NCBI GenBank assembly: GCA_964609395.1
Contig: CAZSRU010000001.1
Coordinates: 7,324-71,323, forward strand
Length of the DNA stretch: 64,000 bases
Direction: 5' to 3'
DNA from: an uncultured Victivallales bacterium
Lineage (GTDB): Bacteria; Verrucomicrobiota; Kiritimatiellia; UBA8416
This document shows, piece by piece, positions 9,481 through 19,784 of this stretch. The notes under the pieces were generated by a model. That model saw only the letters and a program-made list of their open reading frames with translations. It did not search any database and was not told the origin of the DNA. The translations under genes and the position numbers were made by a program. Numbering within the stretch: the first letter of the stretch is position 1; each line of letters opens with the position of its first letter.

Positions 9481-10617
9481 ATGGAAGGCAAAGACGGCAA
9501 AAGCGAGAAAGCGACCAGTAAGCGGCGCTCTGAGCAGCGTGATAAAGGCAATCTGGCCGTATCGCAGGAAATCATCACTGTGGCTGTATTGTTCCTAACG
9601 GTGATCCTGCTCCGCCAGGGATTCCCTTCCTATCTGGCTGGAACACGCCGTATGCTTGAAGTCAGTTGCCTGGCGATGAGTGCCGATGACGCGTGGAGCG
9701 GAATTTGGTTGCAACAGCAATACTGGCACGGGCTCGGAGCTGTCTTGCGTGTTATCGCGCCACTCGTGGGCGGAATCCTGCTGGCGGGGATTATCGGCAG
9801 CGTCGGCCAGACGGGCCCCTTTTTCAGTTGGGAGGCCTTTCAGGCTGGCGGCCTCAAGGCGCTTGACCCGATCAAGGGGGCCAAGCGATTATTCTCGTTC
9901 AAATCGGTGACCAAACTGCTGATGACGCTGGCGAAAATCGGATTGATTGCGGGCGTCATGACCCTTATGTGGCGACGCAAGTGGAATACCGTTGCCCAGT
10001 TGCACGATTTTGACTTGAGTTCGGCTGTCGGCTGGGTGGGACATAACCTCTATACGACGGTCATGGTGATTATCGTGTTGGCGATCTGCATTGCCGTCGT
10101 GGATTTCGTGATCACCTACCGTCGGCATGAGAAAAGCATGATGATGTCCAAGCAGGAGGTCAAGGACGAGCGCAAACAGTACGAAATGAAGCCCGAGGTC
10201 AAACGGGCGCAATTTCGTAAGATGCGGTCATTGACCATTTCCAGGATGGTGGCGGAAGTACCTAAAGCGACCGTGATCATTACAAACCCGACTCGGGTGG
10301 CGGTGGCGATCAAGTATAATCCCGCCGAGATGGAGGCGCCACAGGTTGTCGCCAAAGGCCTGCGCATCCGGGCCAAGCGCATTCGCGAACTGGCGGCAAA
10401 GCACGGGATCCCGATCGTGGAGCGCCCGCCGCTGGCACGCGCCTTGTATCGGTCTGTGCCGACGGGACGCTCTATCCCCGCCGGGCTGTTCGAGGGCGTT
10501 GCGGAAGTGCTTGCGTATCTGCATCGGTTAGGGTACCGGCTGGAAGGGATTGCGGGTCAGAAGGTGTCGACGGGAAATGCCGTCGAGCAGGAAGGATATA
10601 GGGCGCCATGGCTTTAA
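9481..10617 (+). CDS. flhB: Flagellar export switch protein FlhB
   Basis: 378 aa; four TM segments; autocleavage site NPTR/NPTH-like (VIITNPTRVAVAIKYN); C-terminal cytoplasmic domain. Confidence 0.9.
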   Translation: MEGKDGKSEKATSKRRSEQRDKGNLAVSQEIITVAVLFLTVILLRQGFPSYLAGTRRMLEVSCLAMSADDAWSGIWLQQQYWHGLGAVLRVIAPLVGGILLAGIIGSVGQTGPFFSWEAFQAGGLKALDPIKGAKRLFSFKSVTKLLMTLAKIGLIAGVMTLMWRRKWNTVAQLHDFDLSSAVGWVGHNLYTTVMVIIVLAICIAVVDFVITYRRHEKSMMMSKQEVKDERKQYEMKPEVKRAQFRKMRSLTISRMVAEVPKATVIITNPTRVAVAIKYNPAEMEAPQVVAKGLRIRAKRIRELAAKHGIPIVERPPLARALYRSVPTGRSIPAGLFEGVAEVLAYLHRLGYRLEGIAGQKVSTGNAVEQEGYRAPWL

Positions 10618-12707
10618 AGGATTTTAGGCATTCCGATTTGCTGGTGGCCGCGGCGATGATCCTGATCTTGTCCGTGCTGATTCTCCCGATTCCGACACCA
10701 CTGCTGGATGTGATGCTCGTGCTGAGTATCGCCATGGGGGCGCTCGTTCTATTTATCACGCTTCAGTTGAAGGATGCCCTTCAGCTTTCCTCATTCCCTT
10801 CCATGCTGCTGATGCTGACGCTTTTCCGGCTGGCTCTCAATGTTGCCACCACACGCCAGATTCTGCTCACGGGTTTTGCTGGCAACGTGATCCAGTCGTT
10901 TGGCGATTTCGTGGTGGGTGGCAACTATGTTGTCGGTGTGGTTATCTTCCTGATCCTGGTGCTTGTGAATTTCATGGTGATCACCAAGGGAGCGGGGCGC
11001 ATCGCCGAGGTGGCAGCCCGGTTTACGCTGGATGCTATGCCAGGCAAGCAAATGAGTATCGATGCCGATCTGAATGCCGGGCTGATTGATGAAGCGACAG
11101 CCCTGCGTCGTCGCGAGGGGCTTTCCAGCGAGGCTGATTTCTACGGGGCGATGGATGGTGCCAGCAAGTTTGTCAAAGGCGATGCGGTGGCCGGCCTCGT
11201 CATTACCGCCATCAATATCGCTGGCGGTTTTGCGATCGGCATGATGCAGCAGGGTATGGGTGCGATCGAGGCCTTGCAGAAATATACACTCCTGACGGTG
11301 GGTGATGGCCTTGTCTCGCAGATTCCCGCGTTGGTGATCTCGACGGCAGCCGGCATGCTGGTGACACGCGCCGCTTCGGATCAAAGCCTGGGCGAGGACA
11401 TCAAATCGCAGCTTTTCATGCGCCCCAAGCCTCTGTATGCGACGGCGGGAATGCTCGGTGCCATGGCGCTGGTGCCGGGGCTGCCGTTCATGCCGTTTAT
11501 GCTGCTGGCGATGACGATGGGCGGCATCGGGTATTCGCTACGCAAGTTGCCGCCGCCGTCGGAAACCACATCTGCGCCGGGGGGGGCAAAGAAAAAGGCG
11601 CTGCCGGGGAGTGACGAGGCGAAAGCATTGCCCATGAGTCGCCCGGCGGATATCCCGGATGTAAGCGCGATGGATGTTGAAATCGGCTTTGGTCTGGTTC
11701 CTCTGGTTGACCGCGGCCAGGGAGGCACGTTGCTGGATCGGATTACCACGATCCGGCATCAGATGGCCGAAGACCTCGGGTTCATTCTCCCTCCCGTGAA
11801 TGTGCATGATAACGCCAGGTTGCGCAATACGGAGTATGCGATCCGTGTCCGTGGTCTGGAGGTTGCGCGTGGTATCCTGCAGCCGCAGCAGTGGTTGGCA
11901 GTCGATGCCACTGGCGATGTGCATTTTGAAGGCCCGGCACCGGTTAAGGAACCGACCTTCGGATTCCGGGCGTGGTGGGTGAGCGCCGCGCAACGCGAAC
12001 TGGCCGAGGCTCGAGGAATGACGGTTGTGGATGCCAGCGGTGTGCTCAGTACGCATCTGGCTGAGACGATTCGCCGCCATGCCGGGGAGCTGCTGGGGCG
12101 GCAGGATGTCAGCGAGATGATTGATAATGTCAAACAGAAGCATGCGTCGGTTGTGCAGGAGTTGATCCCGGCCCGACTCAGTATCGGTGTCGTACATCGC
12201 GTGCTTCAGTATTTGCTGCGTGAACGCGTTTCGGTTCGCGATCTTGCCTTGATCCTGGAAACCCTTTCTGATCATGCTGCCAAAACGCAGGATCCGGTGA
12301 TTCTTGGCGAACTGTGCCGCCGCTCCCTTGGTGGTCATATTGTGGGGGCCTATCTTGAGGCTGGCAACCGACTTCCCGCCATCGCGCTGCACCCGGAGCT
12401 TGAATCCGCGATGCAAAGCGCGATTCATCGCGAGAACGGTGACTTGGGCGTATTGGCTTTACCTCCGGTGCAGGTGCAGGCTATTCTGAAAAGCGTTGAA
12501 ACCATTCTTCAGGCGGCTCGCAAAAAGAATCGCCATCCGGTAATGGTGGCACTTCCGGTTTTACGGCGGCATATCCGTCGATTAATCGAAGCGCAGGAGC
12601 GAGATCTGGCTGTGCTTTCATTTGTGGAAATACCGGATTTTGTTGATATTGATGTTATCGGGTTGATCAAGACGCCTTCGGGGCAAGCAGGCAAGGGAGA
12701 TGCGTGA
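10608..12707 (+). CDS. flhA: Flagellar export apparatus protein FlhA
   Basis: 699 aa; conserved TM core, FHIPEx-like loop and large C-terminal cytoplasmic domain. Confidence 0.95.
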   Translation: MALKDFRHSDLLVAAAMILILSVLILPIPTPLLDVMLVLSIAMGALVLFITLQLKDALQLSSFPSMLLMLTLFRLALNVATTRQILLTGFAGNVIQSFGDFVVGGNYVVGVVIFLILVLVNFMVITKGAGRIAEVAARFTLDAMPGKQMSIDADLNAGLIDEATALRRREGLSSEADFYGAMDGASKFVKGDAVAGLVITAINIAGGFAIGMMQQGMGAIEALQKYTLLTVGDGLVSQIPALVISTAAGMLVTRAASDQSLGEDIKSQLFMRPKPLYATAGMLGAMALVPGLPFMPFMLLAMTMGGIGYSLRKLPPPSETTSAPGGAKKKALPGSDEAKALPMSRPADIPDVSAMDVEIGFGLVPLVDRGQGGTLLDRITTIRHQMAEDLGFILPPVNVHDNARLRNTEYAIRVRGLEVARGILQPQQWLAVDATGDVHFEGPAPVKEPTFGFRAWWVSAAQRELAEARGMTVVDASGVLSTHLAETIRRHAGELLGRQDVSEMIDNVKQKHASVVQELIPARLSIGVVHRVLQYLLRERVSVRDLALILETLSDHAAKTQDPVILGELCRRSLGGHIVGAYLEAGNRLPAIALHPELESAMQSAIHRENGDLGVLALPPVQVQAILKSVETILQAARKKNRHPVMVALPVLRRHIRRLIEAQERDLAVLSFVEIPDFVDIDVIGLIKTPSGQAGKGDA

Positions 12708-13923
12708 GATGAAGATCCGCCGTTATAAAGGCTCGAGTCGCGAAGAACTCTACCAGTTGATTAACAAGGAGATGGGGCCGAACGCAGTCGTTGTGGCTCC
12801 TGAGACCTCGGGTGGGGGACTATTGACGCGCGGTAAGAAATATGAATTGATCGCGATTCTGGAGGATGCGGAAGAGTCGGGGGCGTCAACCGCAAAGGCG
12901 GCCCCTGCGGGGGGGGCGGCCGACCCTGCGGTCGCAGACGATATGAACCGGTGGCAGCGTATACATACCAGGCAGTGGCGCGAACTGCAAACGAAGATGA
13001 GTCAAATCCAGAAGACCGTGGATACGTTGCAGGCTGGGCATCATGCCCCCCGCGGCGTTGCGCCGGATTCACTGCCTGTGCACGCGGCACTGTGGGACTC
13101 GCGTTTTGTTCAATGGGCAAGGCGGGAAAAAATGGAGCTGCTGGATGCCGATGCGCAACAAGTACGCGCTATTCTGGGCGATTCCCTGCCGATCGAAGGG
13201 CATTTCCAGTTCAAGGGACAGCAAAAGAAACCGCATATTATTGTCCTGACCGGTCCTACCGGATCCGGCAAGACCACGACATTGGCCAAGATGGCGGCAA
13301 TCTGTGCGCATCAGGAGCGCTTGCGTGTCGGTATTGTCAGTATCGATACCTACCGGGTGGCGGCGGTCGATCAGATCCGCGAGTATGCCTCGCTGCTGGA
13401 CATGGAGTTACGCGTTGCGTTCTCGGCGGACGAGGCGCGTTCCGCGATTGCAGAGCTCGCCGATAATGATGTGATTCTGGTGGATACGCCCGGCCGCACC
13501 CATTTTGATGAGATGGGGCTTGCCGTCAGTCACAAGGTTCTGCGGGGAATGGGGGAAATGACGGTCCTGTTAACGATCCCGGCGACCTTGAGTATCAACG
13601 ATCTGGCCGATACGCTGCAGGGGTTCAAGCGCTTTCAGCCGCGTTATCTGGTCGTGACGAAAGTGGATGAGACGCGCCAACCGGTTCTTTTTACGGCCTT
13701 GCCTTTCGAAACGGATTTGAAGGTTGCGTTTGTGACCAATGGGCAGCGGGTCCCGCAGGATATTTTTCCCGGTGACGCCGAGCGGATTGGCGCACTACTG
13801 ATGCCGACGCGAGGGAGCGTTGAGTCCTCACCCAAGCCGTTCAGTTCGGTTTTGCAAGACCGCGTTGACAGTGTTCACGCAACGCGTGCCCGTGCCGCGG
13901 ATGATGCCGGAGGCAGGCAATGA
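12700..13923 (+). CDS. flhF: Flagellar SRP-type GTPase FlhF
   Basis: GPTGSGKTTT P-loop, DTPGR, TKVDE motifs; follows flhA. Confidence 0.9.
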   Translation: MREMKIRRYKGSSREELYQLINKEMGPNAVVVAPETSGGGLLTRGKKYELIAILEDAEESGASTAKAAPAGGAADPAVADDMNRWQRIHTRQWRELQTKMSQIQKTVDTLQAGHHAPRGVAPDSLPVHAALWDSRFVQWARREKMELLDADAQQVRAILGDSLPIEGHFQFKGQQKKPHIIVLTGPTGSGKTTTLAKMAAICAHQERLRVGIVSIDTYRVAAVDQIREYASLLDMELRVAFSADEARSAIAELADNDVILVDTPGRTHFDEMGLAVSHKVLRGMGEMTVLLTIPATLSINDLADTLQGFKRFQPRYLVVTKVDETRQPVLFTALPFETDLKVAFVTNGQRVPQDIFPGDAERIGALLMPTRGSVESSPKPFSSVLQDRVDSVHATRARAADDAGGRQ

Positions 13924-14849
13924 ATGTCGGTAGTAATCTTAATGAGCACACCGGGGATCAGGCCGCCGCCTTGCGTCCGTCAACACCCTTGAGTAAAAAG
14001 ATGGCACCACCCCCTGTCGGTGCGCGTTGTATCGCGATCGGGAGCGGCAAAGGCGGTGTCGGCAAAACCGTGGTTTCGGTCGGATTGGCACTGTCGTTAT
14101 GCGAGCGCGGTCAGCGTGTCCTTCTGTTTGACGGGGATATGGGGCTGGCAAACGTGGACTTGCAGATGGGGTTGGTGCCTGCCTTTACAATACAGGATGT
14201 GATCTTCGGGCATTGTTCGCTTGAAAAGGCCTGTATGCGCATCGAAGGAGGGCCGGATGTGCTGGTGTCTGCCTCGGGTGCTCCCGAACTGGCTGATCTG
14301 AGCCCGGCAAGACGTCAGCTTTTTATTGAGGATCTATTCCGTTTTTCGTCCAATTATGATTATTTCCTGATTGATACCGGTGCCGGTATCGGGCGTGGCA
14401 GCACCGATTTCCTGGCTGCCTGCCCGGAGGTGCTGGTTGTGCTGACGAACGAACCGACCTCGCTGATGGATGCGTATGCCTTGATCAAGACACTGCATCT
14501 GCGGGGTGAGGTACACGGGCTCGGGGTGATCGTGAATATGGTGGATTCGCTTGACGAAGGCGAGCGGGTTTTCTCTCGACTCAATGCGATTGCACGGCAG
14601 TTTCTCGGTGTGTCGTTGGCTCTGGCTGGGGTTCTGGTTTATGATCGGCAGGTCTCGGATGCGATTCGTCAACAGCAAAGCATTGTCCGCTATGCCAGCG
14701 GGGGGGCGGTTGCGCATTGCTTGCGTGATCTGGCCCGCCATATCGAAACCCGCCCTCGGCAACAGGTGGTGCCGCTGAGCTTGGCGCAGTGGGGAAAACA
14801 GTGGGAAGTGACGGCGTTTCTTTCGGCCGAAGGGGATAAGGCATTATGA
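13920..14849 (+). CDS. flhG: MinD-like ATPase FlhG/FleN (flagellar number regulator)
   Basis: Deviant Walker A GSGKGGVGKT; ParA/MinD fold; follows flhF. Confidence 0.9.
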   Translation: MNVGSNLNEHTGDQAAALRPSTPLSKKMAPPPVGARCIAIGSGKGGVGKTVVSVGLALSLCERGQRVLLFDGDMGLANVDLQMGLVPAFTIQDVIFGHCSLEKACMRIEGGPDVLVSASGAPELADLSPARRQLFIEDLFRFSSNYDYFLIDTGAGIGRGSTDFLAACPEVLVVLTNEPTSLMDAYALIKTLHLRGEVHGLGVIVNMVDSLDEGERVFSRLNAIARQFLGVSLALAGVLVYDRQVSDAIRQQQSIVRYASGGAVAHCLRDLARHIETRPRQQVVPLSLAQWGKQWEVTAFLSAEGDKAL

Positions 14850-15157
14850 AGGCGCTCTTATGTCAGATTGCATTGATTGTAGGCGGGATCGTGGCAGCCC
14901 TGTCGCTTGGGGTTAACTTGTTGCGGCATATGGAGCTGTTCACGGCGGTTTTCCGCGCCATCCTTGTTTTTATCGGTACAGTCACCATCATCTTTCTCTT
15001 CCTGCATCTTTTCTCTGTGATCCTGGTCCGTTTTGTTGCCGAGCAGGTGGTCCAGCAACGTAGTCATGCCGATGACGAACAGAATAAGACAAAGCAAGCT
15101 GGTACCTTTGTGCGTACACGCGCAGGAACGGCACCAAAAGCGATTGAACCGAAATGA
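14846..15157 (+). CDS. Small two-TM membrane protein between flhG and fliA (translationally coupled, ATGA overlaps)
   Basis: 103 aa, two hydrophobic helices then charged tail; overlaps flhG stop and fliA start. Confidence 0.5.
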   Translation: MKALLCQIALIVGGIVAALSLGVNLLRHMELFTAVFRAILVFIGTVTIIFLFLHLFSVILVRFVAEQVVQQRSHADDEQNKTKQAGTFVRTRAGTAPKAIEPK

Positions 15158-15927
15158 GTACGCAAACAACCGATATCAAGGATGAGGAATGTGTAGCCCT
15201 GTGGGCGACGCATGTCGCGGCCCCATCGGAGGATTCGGTTGCTCGCCTTGTCGAGTTTTACCTGCCGATGGTGCGCCAGACGGTTGCGCTGATGTCGGTT
15301 TATTGCCGCCCGGACCTTGACCGGGACGACTTGATCCAGCACGCCATGATGGGACTGTGGCAGTGCATCGAGAAGTTTGATCCTCAACGCCAGATCCGGT
15401 TTCGCAGCTTTGCGATGCCGCGGATTCGCGGGGCGGTGCTGGATGCGCTGCGACGGCATGACCCGTTGAGCCGGAATGACCGCGCACTACTGAAAACATT
15501 GCAGGATTCGGTGGCACTTTTCAGTCATCAGCACCAGGCGGTTCCGGATGAGGAAACGCTGGCAGCGCTGGCCGATATCGATGTCGACCGGTTGCATGAT
15601 TTAACTGCGCGTGCCCAGCCTGTGCTCTCGTTGGATGGAATCGGGCTCGAGGACATGGAAGGCAATGGGCAGAGTCTTGGAGACCGGTTGATTGATGAAA
15701 ATGCACCGGATCCACGCCTGGAAACAGTGCGCAACGAGCAGGGTGCCATTTTCAGGAAAGCCTTCAAGCAATTACCGTCACGACAGCAGAAGATCCTCTA
15801 TTTGTACTATTATGAAGACTTGACTTTAAAGGATATCGGCGCAATTCTGGATCTTACAGAGGCGCGTATATGCCAGTTGCATGCAACGGCACTGCTTTTT
15901 TTGAAAGCATTGATGAGAAGCGCGTAA
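15154..15927 (+). CDS. fliA: Flagellar sigma factor sigma28 FliA
   Basis: Sigma70 regions 2-4; region 4.2 HTH LTLKDIGAILDLTEARICQLHATAL. Confidence 0.9.
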   Translation: MSTQTTDIKDEECVALWATHVAAPSEDSVARLVEFYLPMVRQTVALMSVYCRPDLDRDDLIQHAMMGLWQCIEKFDPQRQIRFRSFAMPRIRGAVLDALRRHDPLSRNDRALLKTLQDSVALFSHQHQAVPDEETLAALADIDVDRLHDLTARAQPVLSLDGIGLEDMEGNGQSLGDRLIDENAPDPRLETVRNEQGAIFRKAFKQLPSRQQKILYLYYYEDLTLKDIGAILDLTEARICQLHATALLFLKALMRSA

Positions 15928-15956: not shown

Positions 15957-16253
15957 ATGAGTAGTTCATTAAGCGCAAGTGATGGTGGAGGCTTGGTGGG
16001 GAAGGATGGGCTTGCCCCTTCGGAGTCTTTGCACCGCGTTTCATCAATCGATCAGAACGGATCGAGAAAGGATGACGGAGCGTCCCGGAACCAGGAGAAT
16101 CCGCGTCGTCGTCCGCCGGTCGAGGACCGTATCGAGCTCAGTGAGGATGCGCTCCGTGAGGCCCTGTTGAATCCCGGGCAGTTGCCGGAAGTCCCCGACC
16201 CCGCGCCGGAAGTTCCCGATTTACCGCCGGTTTCCTTCCGTGCGCAAGTCTAA
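15957..16253 (+). CDS. Acidic, low-complexity small protein; candidate anti-sigma28 factor FlgM
   Basis: 98 aa with GAAGGA RBS; disordered S/G/D/P-rich composition; central motif EDRIELSEDALREAL resembles the FlgM D-K-V-x-L-S motif; position immediately after fliA. The FlgM C-terminal helix is not recognisable. Confidence 0.35.
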   Translation: MSSSLSASDGGGLVGKDGLAPSESLHRVSSIDQNGSRKDDGASRNQENPRRRPPVEDRIELSEDALREALLNPGQLPEVPDPAPEVPDLPPVSFRAQV

Positions 16254-17353: not shown

Positions 17354-18280
17354 ATGCGAATTACTCCAGATATGAATATGCGAATGATGTCAGGTGCCAT
17401 GATGCGGCATCAACAAACGTTGTTTGATGTGCGGCGGCAAATGTCTTCTGGACGAAAAGTCAATCTGGCCTCCGATGATCCTGGTGCTTACGAGGCGATC
17501 CAGGGCTTGAAATCGGATTTGTCGCAGTTGTCGCAGTTTGAGCGGAATTCCAATATGGCCCGGCATTATCTAACGATGCTGGATAGCAGCCTGGACAAGA
17601 CCGTGAACCTGGTGCATCAGGCCAGTGAGTTAGCCGTGCGCGCGAGCGATGCCACATTGGATCCCGGCACGCGCGAGGCCATGGCACAACAGGCGGAGCA
17701 ATTGTTGCAGTCGCTTCTGGCCGTGGCCAACAGTTCCGAGGGCGGCCGCTATAATTTTGCCGGCCTGAGGGCGAGTGAGAAACCGTATGTCGAGCAGGTT
17801 GATCCGGTAACCGGTCGGATTACCGCTGTGGTATATGCGGGAAGCGAAGAAACCCGGATGATCAAGATCGGCCCGGAACAATACGCGGCGACCAATATTG
17901 CAGGGAGTCAGTCGGTAGGTGAGGGAGGCATATTCCAGACGTCGACACGAGATTTATTTGATAGTGTGATTCGTTTGCGCGATTCGCTGTCGGCTGGTGT
18001 GAATGGTGCGGAAACCGATAACCTTGAACGGCTGAACGACGACTTGAACCATGTTCTGGGTCAAGTGAGCTTGAACGGAGCCCGGCACGAGCAGGTCAAT
18101 ATGAATGTGTCCTATCTGCGTGAGATGCAATTAACCAACCAGCAATCGCTTGCGACGCTGGATTCCGTTGATATGGCGGAAGCAGCCATGCAGCTTTCAC
18201 AGGCGCAAACGGCCTATCAAGCGGCCCTTCACGGTACTTCAACCCTGATGCAGCAAGTGTCCTTGCTGAATTACATGTAA
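17354..18280 (+). CDS. flgL: Flagellar hook-associated protein 3 FlgL
   Basis: N-terminus MRITPDMNMRMMSG...RKVNLASDDPGAY matches FlgL/flagellin D0; flagellin-type C-terminus. Confidence 0.85.
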   Translation: MRITPDMNMRMMSGAMMRHQQTLFDVRRQMSSGRKVNLASDDPGAYEAIQGLKSDLSQLSQFERNSNMARHYLTMLDSSLDKTVNLVHQASELAVRASDATLDPGTREAMAQQAEQLLQSLLAVANSSEGGRYNFAGLRASEKPYVEQVDPVTGRITAVVYAGSEETRMIKIGPEQYAATNIAGSQSVGEGGIFQTSTRDLFDSVIRLRDSLSAGVNGAETDNLERLNDDLNHVLGQVSLNGARHEQVNMNVSYLREMQLTNQQSLATLDSVDMAEAAMQLSQAQTAYQAALHGTSTLMQQVSLLNYM

Positions 18281-18298: not shown

Positions 18299-18727
18299 TC
18301 AGAGCGAATTGATCCGGTCCTCTGGTTTTACCAGTTTGGTGATTCGGATCCCGTAACTCTCGTCGACAACCACGACGTCGCCCTGGCCGACGGCGGTTCC
18401 ATTGACGATTAGATCGGCGGGGCTTCCAGCCGTGCGGTCCAGTTCGATGATGGAACCGGGTGCCAGGTTCAGGACCTCACGGATCGTCAATCGGGAATTG
18501 CCGACTTCGACTTTGATCTCGACGGGAATATCCATGATGAGTTTCAAATTGCCGTCTCGATCCGGAGTTCCGCGTGGACTCTCCTTGAGGCTGTCGATAT
18601 CTACGGGATGTACCGCGACTGTGGCCTGTTGAGGCGCTGCTTGCGCGGGCTCTTGATTCTGATCGAGCATTCGCATCATTTCGCGTTCTTCCTCTGTCAT
18701 GTTTTCCATCTCGTTTGTGTCGCTCAT
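18299..18727 (-). CDS. fliN: Flagellar motor switch protein FliN (start moved to MSDTNE ATG 18727, RBS AAAGAGG)
   Basis: Conserved SpoA-type C-terminus LNLAPGSIIELDRTAGSPADLIVNGTAVGQGDVVVVDESYGIRI. Confidence 0.9.
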   Translation of the reverse strand: MSDTNEMENMTEEEREMMRMLDQNQEPAQAAPQQATVAVHPVDIDSLKESPRGTPDRDGNLKLIMDIPVEIKVEVGNSRLTIREVLNLAPGSIIELDRTAGSPADLIVNGTAVGQGDVVVVDESYGIRITKLVKPEDRINSL

Positions 18728-18743
18728 AGAGGCCTCTTTGGTC

Positions 18744-19784
18744 TTATGTTTTCGGTTTTGTTGCGGGAGGGGCAGGTGTGGTGGCGGACGTTGGGGCCGG
18801 GCGCGTTGAGAACAGTTGCTGTACGGACACCGCCATCTGGCCGTGACGGGCACCCGCCCGGACGAGGCCGATGTCGCGGTCGCCGACTTGGATGACGAGC
18901 GGGTCGCCAGCTCGGCGTCCAAGCTTGATGATGTCGCCAATCTGGAGATCGCCGAGTTCCCGTGCGCTGACCTGTGCGCGTCCCAGTTCAACATGGGTGC
19001 TCAAGGGGGCCAGTTCGATAGCCTGTAGCGCGTTCTGACGGATTTCTGCCAGCCGGCCGACAGCCGTGGTGTTTGTATGTGCCTCGGCGCGCTGGAAGAT
19101 GGCCTGTAGCGTGCTGAATGGGTAGCAGATCTGCAGGCGACCTTCCGCTTCGTTGAGTTTCAGTTTGAGTACCCCGCAAAGGCAGGGGGTGTCCAGCGGG
19201 GCGACTTGTGCCTGTTCGGGGTCGACGCCCTGCGAGAAGACGGAGAACTGTAACGGCTGTACGCCGCTCCAAGCCAACACCAGTTCATCCATGATGCGGT
19301 CAACCCACGTGCGCAGGATATCCAGTTCCAAAGCGCTGAATTCCCTGGTCGGTTCGGTAGCGCTGGCGACACCGTCGCCACCCAGTAGCATATCGAGGAT
19401 GATCTGCCCCAAGGGCGGGGCCACTTCGATGGCGATTGGGCCGGCGTCTATAATGGAGACCCCCAGCAGGTATGTCGGGCTTTCCAGTGCCAGCATGAAC
19501 TCCCCGTAACTGACTTGGTCGAGGGCGCTCAGCGTTGTTTCTCCAGAGATCTTAAACATGGAAAACATCAGGCTTTGCAGGTTCTTGGATAAGCCCTGAT
19601 GCAAGGACTGGAGCTGCTGGAGGTGTTCTGCCGACAGCAACTGAGGCTTCCTGAAATCATAGGCTACCACCTTGATGTCGGCCGCCGGTCGGGCGCGCGG
19701 TTCCTTCGCCACCTCCTCGATTCGCCCCGTGCGGACCGCATCTCGCAGCGCATCAATTTCAGCTTGGGTCAACGTTTCGGCCAT
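18744..19784 (-). CDS. fliM: Flagellar motor switch protein FliM
   Basis: N-terminal CheY-P binding motif LTQAEIDALR; FliM middle domain and FliN-like C-terminus. Confidence 0.9.
   Translation of the reverse strand: MAETLTQAEIDALRDAVRTGRIEEVAKEPRARPAADIKVVAYDFRKPQLLSAEHLQQLQSLHQGLSKNLQSLMFSMFKISGETTLSALDQVSYGEFMLALESPTYLLGVSIIDAGPIAIEVAPPLGQIILDMLLGGDGVASATEPTREFSALELDILRTWVDRIMDELVLAWSGVQPLQFSVFSQGVDPEQAQVAPLDTPCLCGVLKLKLNEAEGRLQICYPFSTLQAIFQRAEAHTNTTAVGRLAEIRQNALQAIELAPLSTHVELGRAQVSARELGDLQIGDIIKLGRRAGDPLVIQVGDRDIGLVRAGARHGQMAVSVQQLFSTRPAPTSATTPAPPATKPKT

Follow-up and report, generated by a model that had tools for sequence, protein, structure and literature searches.

A small two-helix membrane protein encoded between flhG and fliA in a Victivallales flagellar cluster is probably a form of FlgV

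What is the small membrane protein encoded between the flagellar genes flhG and fliA of an uncultured Victivallales bacterium, and does it connect the products of its two neighbors? The question arises from a stretch of 64,000 nucleotides (GCA_964609395.1, contig CAZSRU010000001.1, positions 7,324 to 71,323 of the forward strand; hereafter the window), in which an open reading frame (ORF) at 14846-15157 (+) starts with ATG and encodes 103 aa followed by a stop codon. A reading of the window made without database searches (the sequence-only reading) described a protein with two transmembrane (TM) helices whose frame shares bases with the stop of flhG and with the start of fliA, and proposed that it is an unrecognised component linking FlhG to FliA. 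The overlaps are indeed present as ATGA at both ends, and a hairpin of two helices is predicted. We consider it likely that the protein is the Verrucomicrobiota form, or more widely the Planctomycetes-Verrucomicrobia-Chlamydiae (PVC) form, of FlgV: a small hairpin of the inner membrane, its two ends facing the cytoplasm. As for its being unrecognised, the component has most likely been described already: FlgV was named in 2014, and its Type-1 group, including Verrucomicrobia and the PVC clade, was published in 2024 (PMC11607428). The PVC member is unannotated in databases.

The ORF is a real, conserved gene, because it has homologues, low ratios of nonsynonymous to synonymous substitution (dN/dS), a GC pattern by codon position that fits its surroundings and a recurring gene order. 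A first search, in a space of 5.8 billion clustered proteins, returned 12 homologues with 47-97% identity, an exhaustive HMMER scan of 1.84 billion representatives brought 26 clusters to E<1e-3, and a profile search added about 45 further proteins of 84-110 aa (mostly 84-89 aa), among which those with a named taxon all belong to Pontiellaceae. Pairwise dN/dS over the first 72 codons, where the alignment is free of gaps, was 0.02-0.21 in all comparisons, with synonymous sites at or near saturation. GC content by codon position was 0.60/0.36/0.56, in line with the neighboring genes. Concerning taxonomy, the closest genomic match (97%) is an unclassified metagenome-assembled genome (MAG), the next four (53-56%) are Verrucomicrobia/Verrucomicrobiota MAGs, and the distant named relatives are Pontiella, Pontiellaceae (Kiritimatiellota) and 'Verrucomicrobia bacterium S94'. 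All named relatives are Verrucomicrobiota or Kiritimatiellota and none is a delta- or epsilon-proteobacterium, and the delta- and epsilon-proteobacterial frame in which conservation had been expected does not hold for this family. A mirrored antisense ORF of 103 aa also exists at 14858-15169 (-), and every relative has a stop-free antisense frame, of 73-104 codons. It was rejected as a gene, since such open frames across relatives reflect sequence composition and it is the forward frame that is under strong purifying selection and has the orientation of the operon.

The recurring gene order could be followed both in the window and in related loci. The flhG stop and the start of the small gene share the ATGA at 14846-14849 (+; 4 nt, TT-ATGA-AG, with the flhG TGA at 14847-14849), while at 15154-15157 (+; AA-ATGA-GT) the ATG of fliA lies over the TGA of the small gene. 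Pfam and NCBIfam scans agree with the neighbors as originally named: flhG (13920-14849, +) encodes a MinD/ParA-type flagellar ATPase in the FlhG position, and fliA (15154-15927, +) encodes sigma-28 (TIGR02479 FliA/WhiG, E-value = 1.8e-55). Upstream lie flhF (12700-13923, +), encoding the flagellar GTPase of the signal recognition particle type (TIGR03499, E-value = 9.5e-47) and overlapping flhA by 8 nt and flhG by 4 nt, and flhA (10608-12707, +), the first gene of the overlapping chain, which encodes the export gate and whose product is 72-97% identical to the FHIPEP-family product in related loci. From flhA to fliA (10608-15927, +) the frames overlap without a break, by 8, 4, 4 and 4 nt. The order flhA-flhF-flhG-X(-fliA), in which X is the small gene, recurs in nine related loci, one of them without flhF (L012) and one without an adjacent fliA (L013). 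In all nine, the end of flhG overlaps the start of the small gene by 4 nt. The distance to fliA varies, with a 4-nt overlap in L001, L005, L009 and L012, a 1-nt overlap in L006 and a gap of 5-11 nt in L007, L008 and L014; in L013 the small gene, placed after flhG, ends the operon. The synteny check suggested by the sequence-only reading, run on these loci, gives flhG next to the small gene in 9/9 and an adjacent fliA in 8/9. Identity between the window and L001 is 73% for FlhA, 67% for FlhG, 60% for the small protein and 49% for FliA, and the small protein is about as conserved as FliA. In L012 (Pontiella agarivorans JARVCO010000002.1, 1998-6043), no flhF lies between flhA and flhG, flhG-X-fliA is kept, and the cluster has the number regulator FlhG without its usual partner FlhF at that position.

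The comparison with a small epsilon-proteobacterial gene in the same slot was well placed, as that slot is occupied by FlgV (PMC4073491, PMC10655999, PMC11607428). Gao et al. (2014) gave the name flgV to the Campylobacter jejuni gene between flhG and fliA (Cj0062c/CJJ81176_0100), whose product has two predicted TM helices, localises to the pole and co-immunoprecipitates with FliF; the mutants are flagellated and non-motile (PMC4073491). In Helicobacter pylori, Botting et al. (2023) identified FlgV as HP1033b (HPG27_395) and by cryo-electron tomography assigned to it a ring at the junction of the MS ring and the C ring; the gene had initially been missed in strain 26695, where an ORF on the opposite strand had been annotated (PMC10655999). 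Zamba-Campero et al. (2024, Nat Commun) showed that BB0268 of Borrelia burgdorferi, once called 'Hfq', is FlgV, that it too forms a ring at the MS/C-ring junction in cryo-electron tomography, and that its loss leads to fewer and shorter filaments with normal numbers of basal bodies (PMC11607428). The H. pylori ring is reportedly large and adapted to a high-torque motor (PMC11607428). According to the same study, Type-1 FlgV is carried by Spirochaetes, Firmicutes, the PVC clade (Verrucomicrobia named; PVC at e<1e-5), Nitrospinota and others, and always lies in a flagellar operon, where the flhF-flhG and sigma-28 modules meet. An arginine in TM2 ('RS' in Borrelia FlgV), an acidic residue where TM2 begins and a polar residue within TM2 are features of Type 1 that the Campylobacterota types are without, and a C-terminal hydrophobic/basic peptide is described as conserved in Type 1 (PMC11607428).

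The predicted anatomy of the window protein matches this description in most respects. AlphaFold2, run with 13 and then with 60 aligned sequences, gave the same result: a helix over residues 3-25, a loop over 26-31, a long helix from 32 to about 84 and a disordered tail. The predicted local distance difference test (pLDDT) score was highest over residues 31-60 (77-87) and below 50 at residues 76-96 and 101-103. In the model, TM helix 1 (residues 3-25, LLCQIALIVGGIVAALSLGVNLL; 14852-14920, +) is followed by the presumably periplasmic loop LRHMEL (residues 26-31; 14921-14938, +) and by TM helix 2 (residues 32-61; 14939-15028, +). The motif RFVAEQV (residues 62-68; 15029-15049, +), invariant in 13/13 close relatives, would form a juxtamembrane cytoplasmic helix, and a polar, variable tail (residues 69-103; 15050-15154, +) is predicted from the pLDDT to be disordered. 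The topology is probably that of a hairpin with both ends inside, as the loop is net-neutral or acidic and basic residues stand at both ends.

Conservation was counted in a PVC alignment of 77 sequences. Arg37 (codon CGC, 14954-14956, +), the intramembrane arginine of TM2, is invariant (77/77) and lies in an FRA motif that reads FRS in most relatives. Position 54, near the cytoplasmic end of TM2, is polar in 76/77 (R in 64, H in 5 including the window protein, Q in 5, N in 1 and K in 1); its codon in the window is CAT (15005-15007, +), and the surrounding motif is FFRFF in most relatives. L5, F52, F56, L60 and F63 are nearly invariant, as is G13 in TM helix 1, and position 57 is N, S or T in 66/77. 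Conservation extends to the hydrophobic segments as such. Directly after the membrane segment comes R62-F63-[VL]-A-E, with R62 in 62/77 and F63 in 76/77. Position 30 is D or E in 13/13 close relatives (E30 in the window) and in 16/77 of the wider family, 10 more members having the acidic residue at position 28. From residue 68 the family tail measures 16-61 aa and is 26% acidic, 18% basic and 13% hydrophobic, and a 'FVRTR' string within the family is common only to the window protein and its three closest relatives.

Set against Type-1 FlgV (the BB0268 family), the window protein is likewise a two-TM hairpin with an arginine in TM2, FRA or FRS standing for the 'RS' of Borrelia. It also shares the acidic residue where TM2 begins (E30), a polar TM2 residue (H54) and a polar, variable tail. 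Its gene lies at the meeting point of flhF-flhG and sigma-28 in the window as in the nine related loci, and its relatives, Verrucomicrobiota and Pontiellaceae, fall in a listed carrier clade. There are differences as well. BB0268 has about 159 aa (480-bp ORF) compared with 103 aa in the window, and the PVC family adds a nearly conserved second basic residue in TM2 (position 54, His in the window), the RF[VL]AE juxtamembrane motif and the 4-nt overlap with flhG. For Borrelia FlgV a moonlighting role as RNA chaperone has been proposed; the tail of the window protein is short and not conserved. The former BB0268 label, Hfq with its Sm fold, was itself tried for the window protein and rejected, as the model is an all-helical hairpin without any Hfq match; for BB0268 the label has been withdrawn.

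Type-2 FlgV of Campylobacterota resembles the window protein in gene order (flhF-flhG-flgV-fliA), in size (104-118 aa) and in having two TM helices. Additionally, the antisense frame of similar length over the window gene could lead annotators astray, as one did in H. pylori 26695. However, Type 2 has neither the TM2 arginine nor the flanking acidic and polar residues, all present in the window protein (R37, E30 and H54), and its gene stands in a short six-gene operon, whereas the window gene belongs to a long flagellar cluster starting with flhA. The window protein was therefore not assigned to Type 2.

A tentative link at the profile level connects the PVC family with Type 1 by way of candidates from Firmicute-like loci. 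A metagenome scan anchored on FliA gave 80 such loci, and in most of those that extend upstream of fliA the gene directly upstream encodes a protein of 85-140 aa with two TM helices and an acidic tail. In Acetoanaerobium noterae the order is cheD, a 103-aa two-TM protein (P0080), fliA and a 470-aa ORF that we read as FapA-like. From their matching position and architecture we infer that these two-TM proteins correspond to the Type-1 FlgV described for Bacillota in 2024 (PMC11607428). When the PVC profile (77 sequences) was aligned by hhalign with a Firmicute-like profile (34 sequences, 33 from metagenome loci plus Acetoanaerobium), the probability was 92.8 with P=4e-7 and a score of 40.3. The controls scored 19.0 +/- 3.7 (150 shuffles of the membrane-region columns, maximum 31.5) and 16.5 (reversed alignment), which places the match about 5.8 standard deviations above the shuffles, although shuffling columns sets a low bar for hairpin proteins. 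The PVC hidden Markov model (HMM) was also run on the six-frame translations of the loci fetched from L010 onward, 2604 ORFs of 40 aa or more in all; three PVC proteins ranked first, and of the 27 places below them (E-values from 6e-6 to 0.3) about 25 went to the ORF just upstream of fliA. The best Firmicute-like candidate, from L054 (cheA-cheW-cheC-cheD-X-fliA), aligned over its full length, with R35 opposite R37 and 'LITILYRVAI' opposite the family's 'LLTAVFRASL'. Like the window protein, the Clostridia-like proteins (P0080 and L015-L075) have two TM helices and an acidic tail, match the PVC profile and have genes immediately upstream of fliA, which in many cases overlap or adjoin it. Unlike in the window, pilZ and che genes stand between them and flhG; the basic residue of their TM2 is in many cases K or missing, a 'FYxxG' motif is present, and two of them (L054 and Acetoanaerobium) end in an EFxx[FW]T peptide.

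The Acetoanaerobium noterae record (L010/L011; NZ_CP154629.1, 2.63 Mb) appears in PLSDB as 'plasmid pTPELB2' with only four annotated features. It carries rpsB-, tsf-, pyrH- and frr-like ORFs, recognised by eye, together with a full flagellar and chemotaxis operon, and is evidently a chromosome mislabelled as a plasmid.

Several points weigh against the assignment to FlgV. BLASTP found no match between the window protein and the L054 protein, and hhalign of the PVC alignment with the shallow Acetoanaerobium candidate family was not significant; a homologue search with the Acetoanaerobium candidate had returned near-identical sequences only. Several of the HMM alignments slip out of register, with Glu-rich tails contributing to their scores, and part of the profile signal may come from shared architecture and not from descent. 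The Type-1 C-terminal hydrophobic/basic peptide is not conserved across the 77 PVC sequences. No family entry for the window protein emerged from Pfam, NCBIfam or PDB sequence searches: scans of the ORF and 31 family members against Pfam and NCBIfam gave only sub-threshold noise from membrane proteins, and neither a PDB sequence profile search nor Foldseek against the PDB gave a meaningful match, an expected outcome for a helical hairpin. A Firmicute candidate likewise had no match in Pfam or NCBIfam. Furthermore, the comparison with BB0268, Cj0062c and HP1033b was made by their published descriptions only, and the FlgV experiments come from B. burgdorferi, H. pylori and C. jejuni and not from PVC organisms. 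Overall, the sequence link between the PVC family and the Firmicute-like candidates is supportive but not conclusive.

These points would also suit a protein that resembles FlgV in position alone, namely an unrelated, PVC-specific two-TM protein that occupies the flhG-fliA slot and has another membrane role in flagellation. Pairwise similarity to the non-PVC candidates is undetectable, the family has motifs of its own (FFRFF and RF[VL]AE) and is without the Type-1 C-terminal peptide, and small hydrophobic proteins readily give spurious profile matches. Such a coincidence nevertheless seems to us quite unlikely, given that the profile-profile score lies well beyond the shuffles, that the PVC HMM picks out the positional equivalents specifically, that the TM2 arginine falls in register with that of L054, and that published iterative searches list Verrucomicrobia among the Type-1 carriers.

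If the protein is FlgV, a course of events can be proposed. The FlgV-like protein would be made from the same transcript as FlhA, FlhF, FlhG and FliA, its translation probably being coupled to that of FlhG, because its start codon overlaps the flhG stop. A Shine-Dalgarno-like purine-rich stretch (GAAGGGGATAAGG; 14829-14841, +) within the 3' end of flhG, which may serve the small gene, suggests together with the two ATGA overlaps that translation is coupled to that of FlhG and, in the present organism, continues in the same way to FliA. The chain of five overlapping genes likewise suggests serial translational coupling from flhA to fliA. The translational coupling advanced in the sequence-only reading is thus sound as to layout, and the coupling itself is deduced from that layout. 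Such coupling would tie the dosage of the FlgV-like protein to those of FlhG and FliA. Many copies would then encircle the FliF MS ring within the membrane, where it joins the C ring, and by homology the resulting ring would serve late steps of flagellar assembly or the function of the motor. Within TM2, Arg37 and polar residue 54 would be the likely contacts with FliF TM helices or lipid head groups; the helix RFVAEQV and, after it, the polar tail would point to FliG and the C ring. Ring formation, contact with FliF and any phenotype of the window protein are thus predicted by analogy with the characterised FlgV proteins.

This placement bears on the proposed link from FlhG to FliA, which finds no support in what is known of FlgV, a protein that is recovered together with FliF and makes up a ring where MS ring and C ring meet, that exists in Borrelia without sigma-28 (PMC11607428), and whose gene in L013 has no fliA beside it. 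The FlhG half of the bridge keeps some ground through the invariant overlap with flhG, and the FliA half is weakened by L013 and Borrelia. FlhG probably delivers C-ring proteins at the MS/C-ring junction. The small protein might serve FlhG as a dock or regulator in the membrane, recruiting or holding it at the nascent MS ring and coupling number control and C-ring loading to basal-body assembly, a role that could hold in addition to that of a FlgV ring. The 4-nt overlap with flhG is constant across the nine loci, the connection with fliA being variable and, in L013, missing; the Pontiella gene stays with flhG despite the missing flhF, and the published FlgV ring sits at that very junction. On the other hand, the Firmicute-like equivalents adjoin fliA and have che genes between them and flhG, so that adjacency to flhG is not universal, and the normal basal-body numbers of B. 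burgdorferi flgV mutants are unlike the defect expected for an FlhG function. We regard a docking role as unlikely. The same reserve applies to its fuller version, in which PVC FlgV would be a distinct subtype, having the Type-1 arginine, the second near-invariant basic residue (FFRFF), the RF[VL]AE helix, no C-terminal peptide and the 4-nt flhG overlap in every locus examined, that docks FlhG at the MS/C-ring junction and in this way physically ties the control of flagellar number to the loading of the C ring and to when FliA is made; this proposal, too, is a speculative one with little chance of being correct.

On the FliA side, the protein would be a regulator of sigma-28 anchored in the membrane, such as a tether of anti-sigma type that keeps FliA at the membrane until the basal body is complete. 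The gene is immediately upstream of fliA, overlapping it in the window and in four relatives, and FlgV is co-conserved with sigma-28 in many phyla (PMC11607428). Yet the gene persists without an adjacent fliA in L013, Borrelia has the one protein without the other, and Borrelia FlgV alters the levels of FlaB protein and not those of flaB mRNA (PMC11607428, title of Fig. S8). The cytoplasmic part of the window protein is also short, variable and predicted to be disordered, and neither Pfam nor NCBIfam gave an anti-sigma match. We therefore hold a tether of this kind to be very improbable. A FlgM-like anti-sigma-28 factor was considered as a candidate family in its own right and rejected, as Pfam and NCBIfam showed no such family even with thresholds of E<=1 to 10.

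Taking the small protein as FlgV, the consequences are mainly practical. The flagellar clusters of PVC bacteria carry a basal-body component that goes unannotated, as Pfam and NCBIfam hold no FlgV model, and the named relatives of the window protein are all recorded as 'hypothetical protein' or under spurious automatic names. The latter comprise 'membrane protein implicated in regulation of membrane protease activity', 'ABC-type dipeptide... permease subunit' and 'phosphoglycerol transferase MdoB-like' (P0002, P0017 and P0070), misannotations that a FlgV model would correct. The 77-sequence PVC alignment, with its invariant Arg37, FFRFF and RF[VL]AE, could seed such a model. The FlgV ring is a widespread and possibly ancient feature of the motor that is absent from Escherichia coli and Bacillus subtilis, and the PVC case extends this observation; it opens no new question, its value lying in annotation.

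Finally, the flagellar cluster, which in the relative L001 begins with flhB-flhA, runs on downstream of fliA in the window. A non-membrane ORF of 98 aa (15957-16253, +) lies 30 nt 3' of fliA. It has no match in Pfam or NCBIfam and is kept after fliA in relatives (identity of 90% in L005, 44% in L001 and 29-35% in L006 and L009), and could be an unrecognised FlgM-like or other protein of the sigma-28 module. It is followed by a presumed cheX-cheY pair in the opposite orientation and by a presumed flgL: by analogy with the Pfam calls in L001, 16260-17175 (-) would encode a CheX-like and a CheY-like protein and 17354-18280 (+) a FlgL-like protein with a flagellin N-terminal domain. On the same grounds, 18299-19784 (-) probably holds FliN/FliM-like ORFs.

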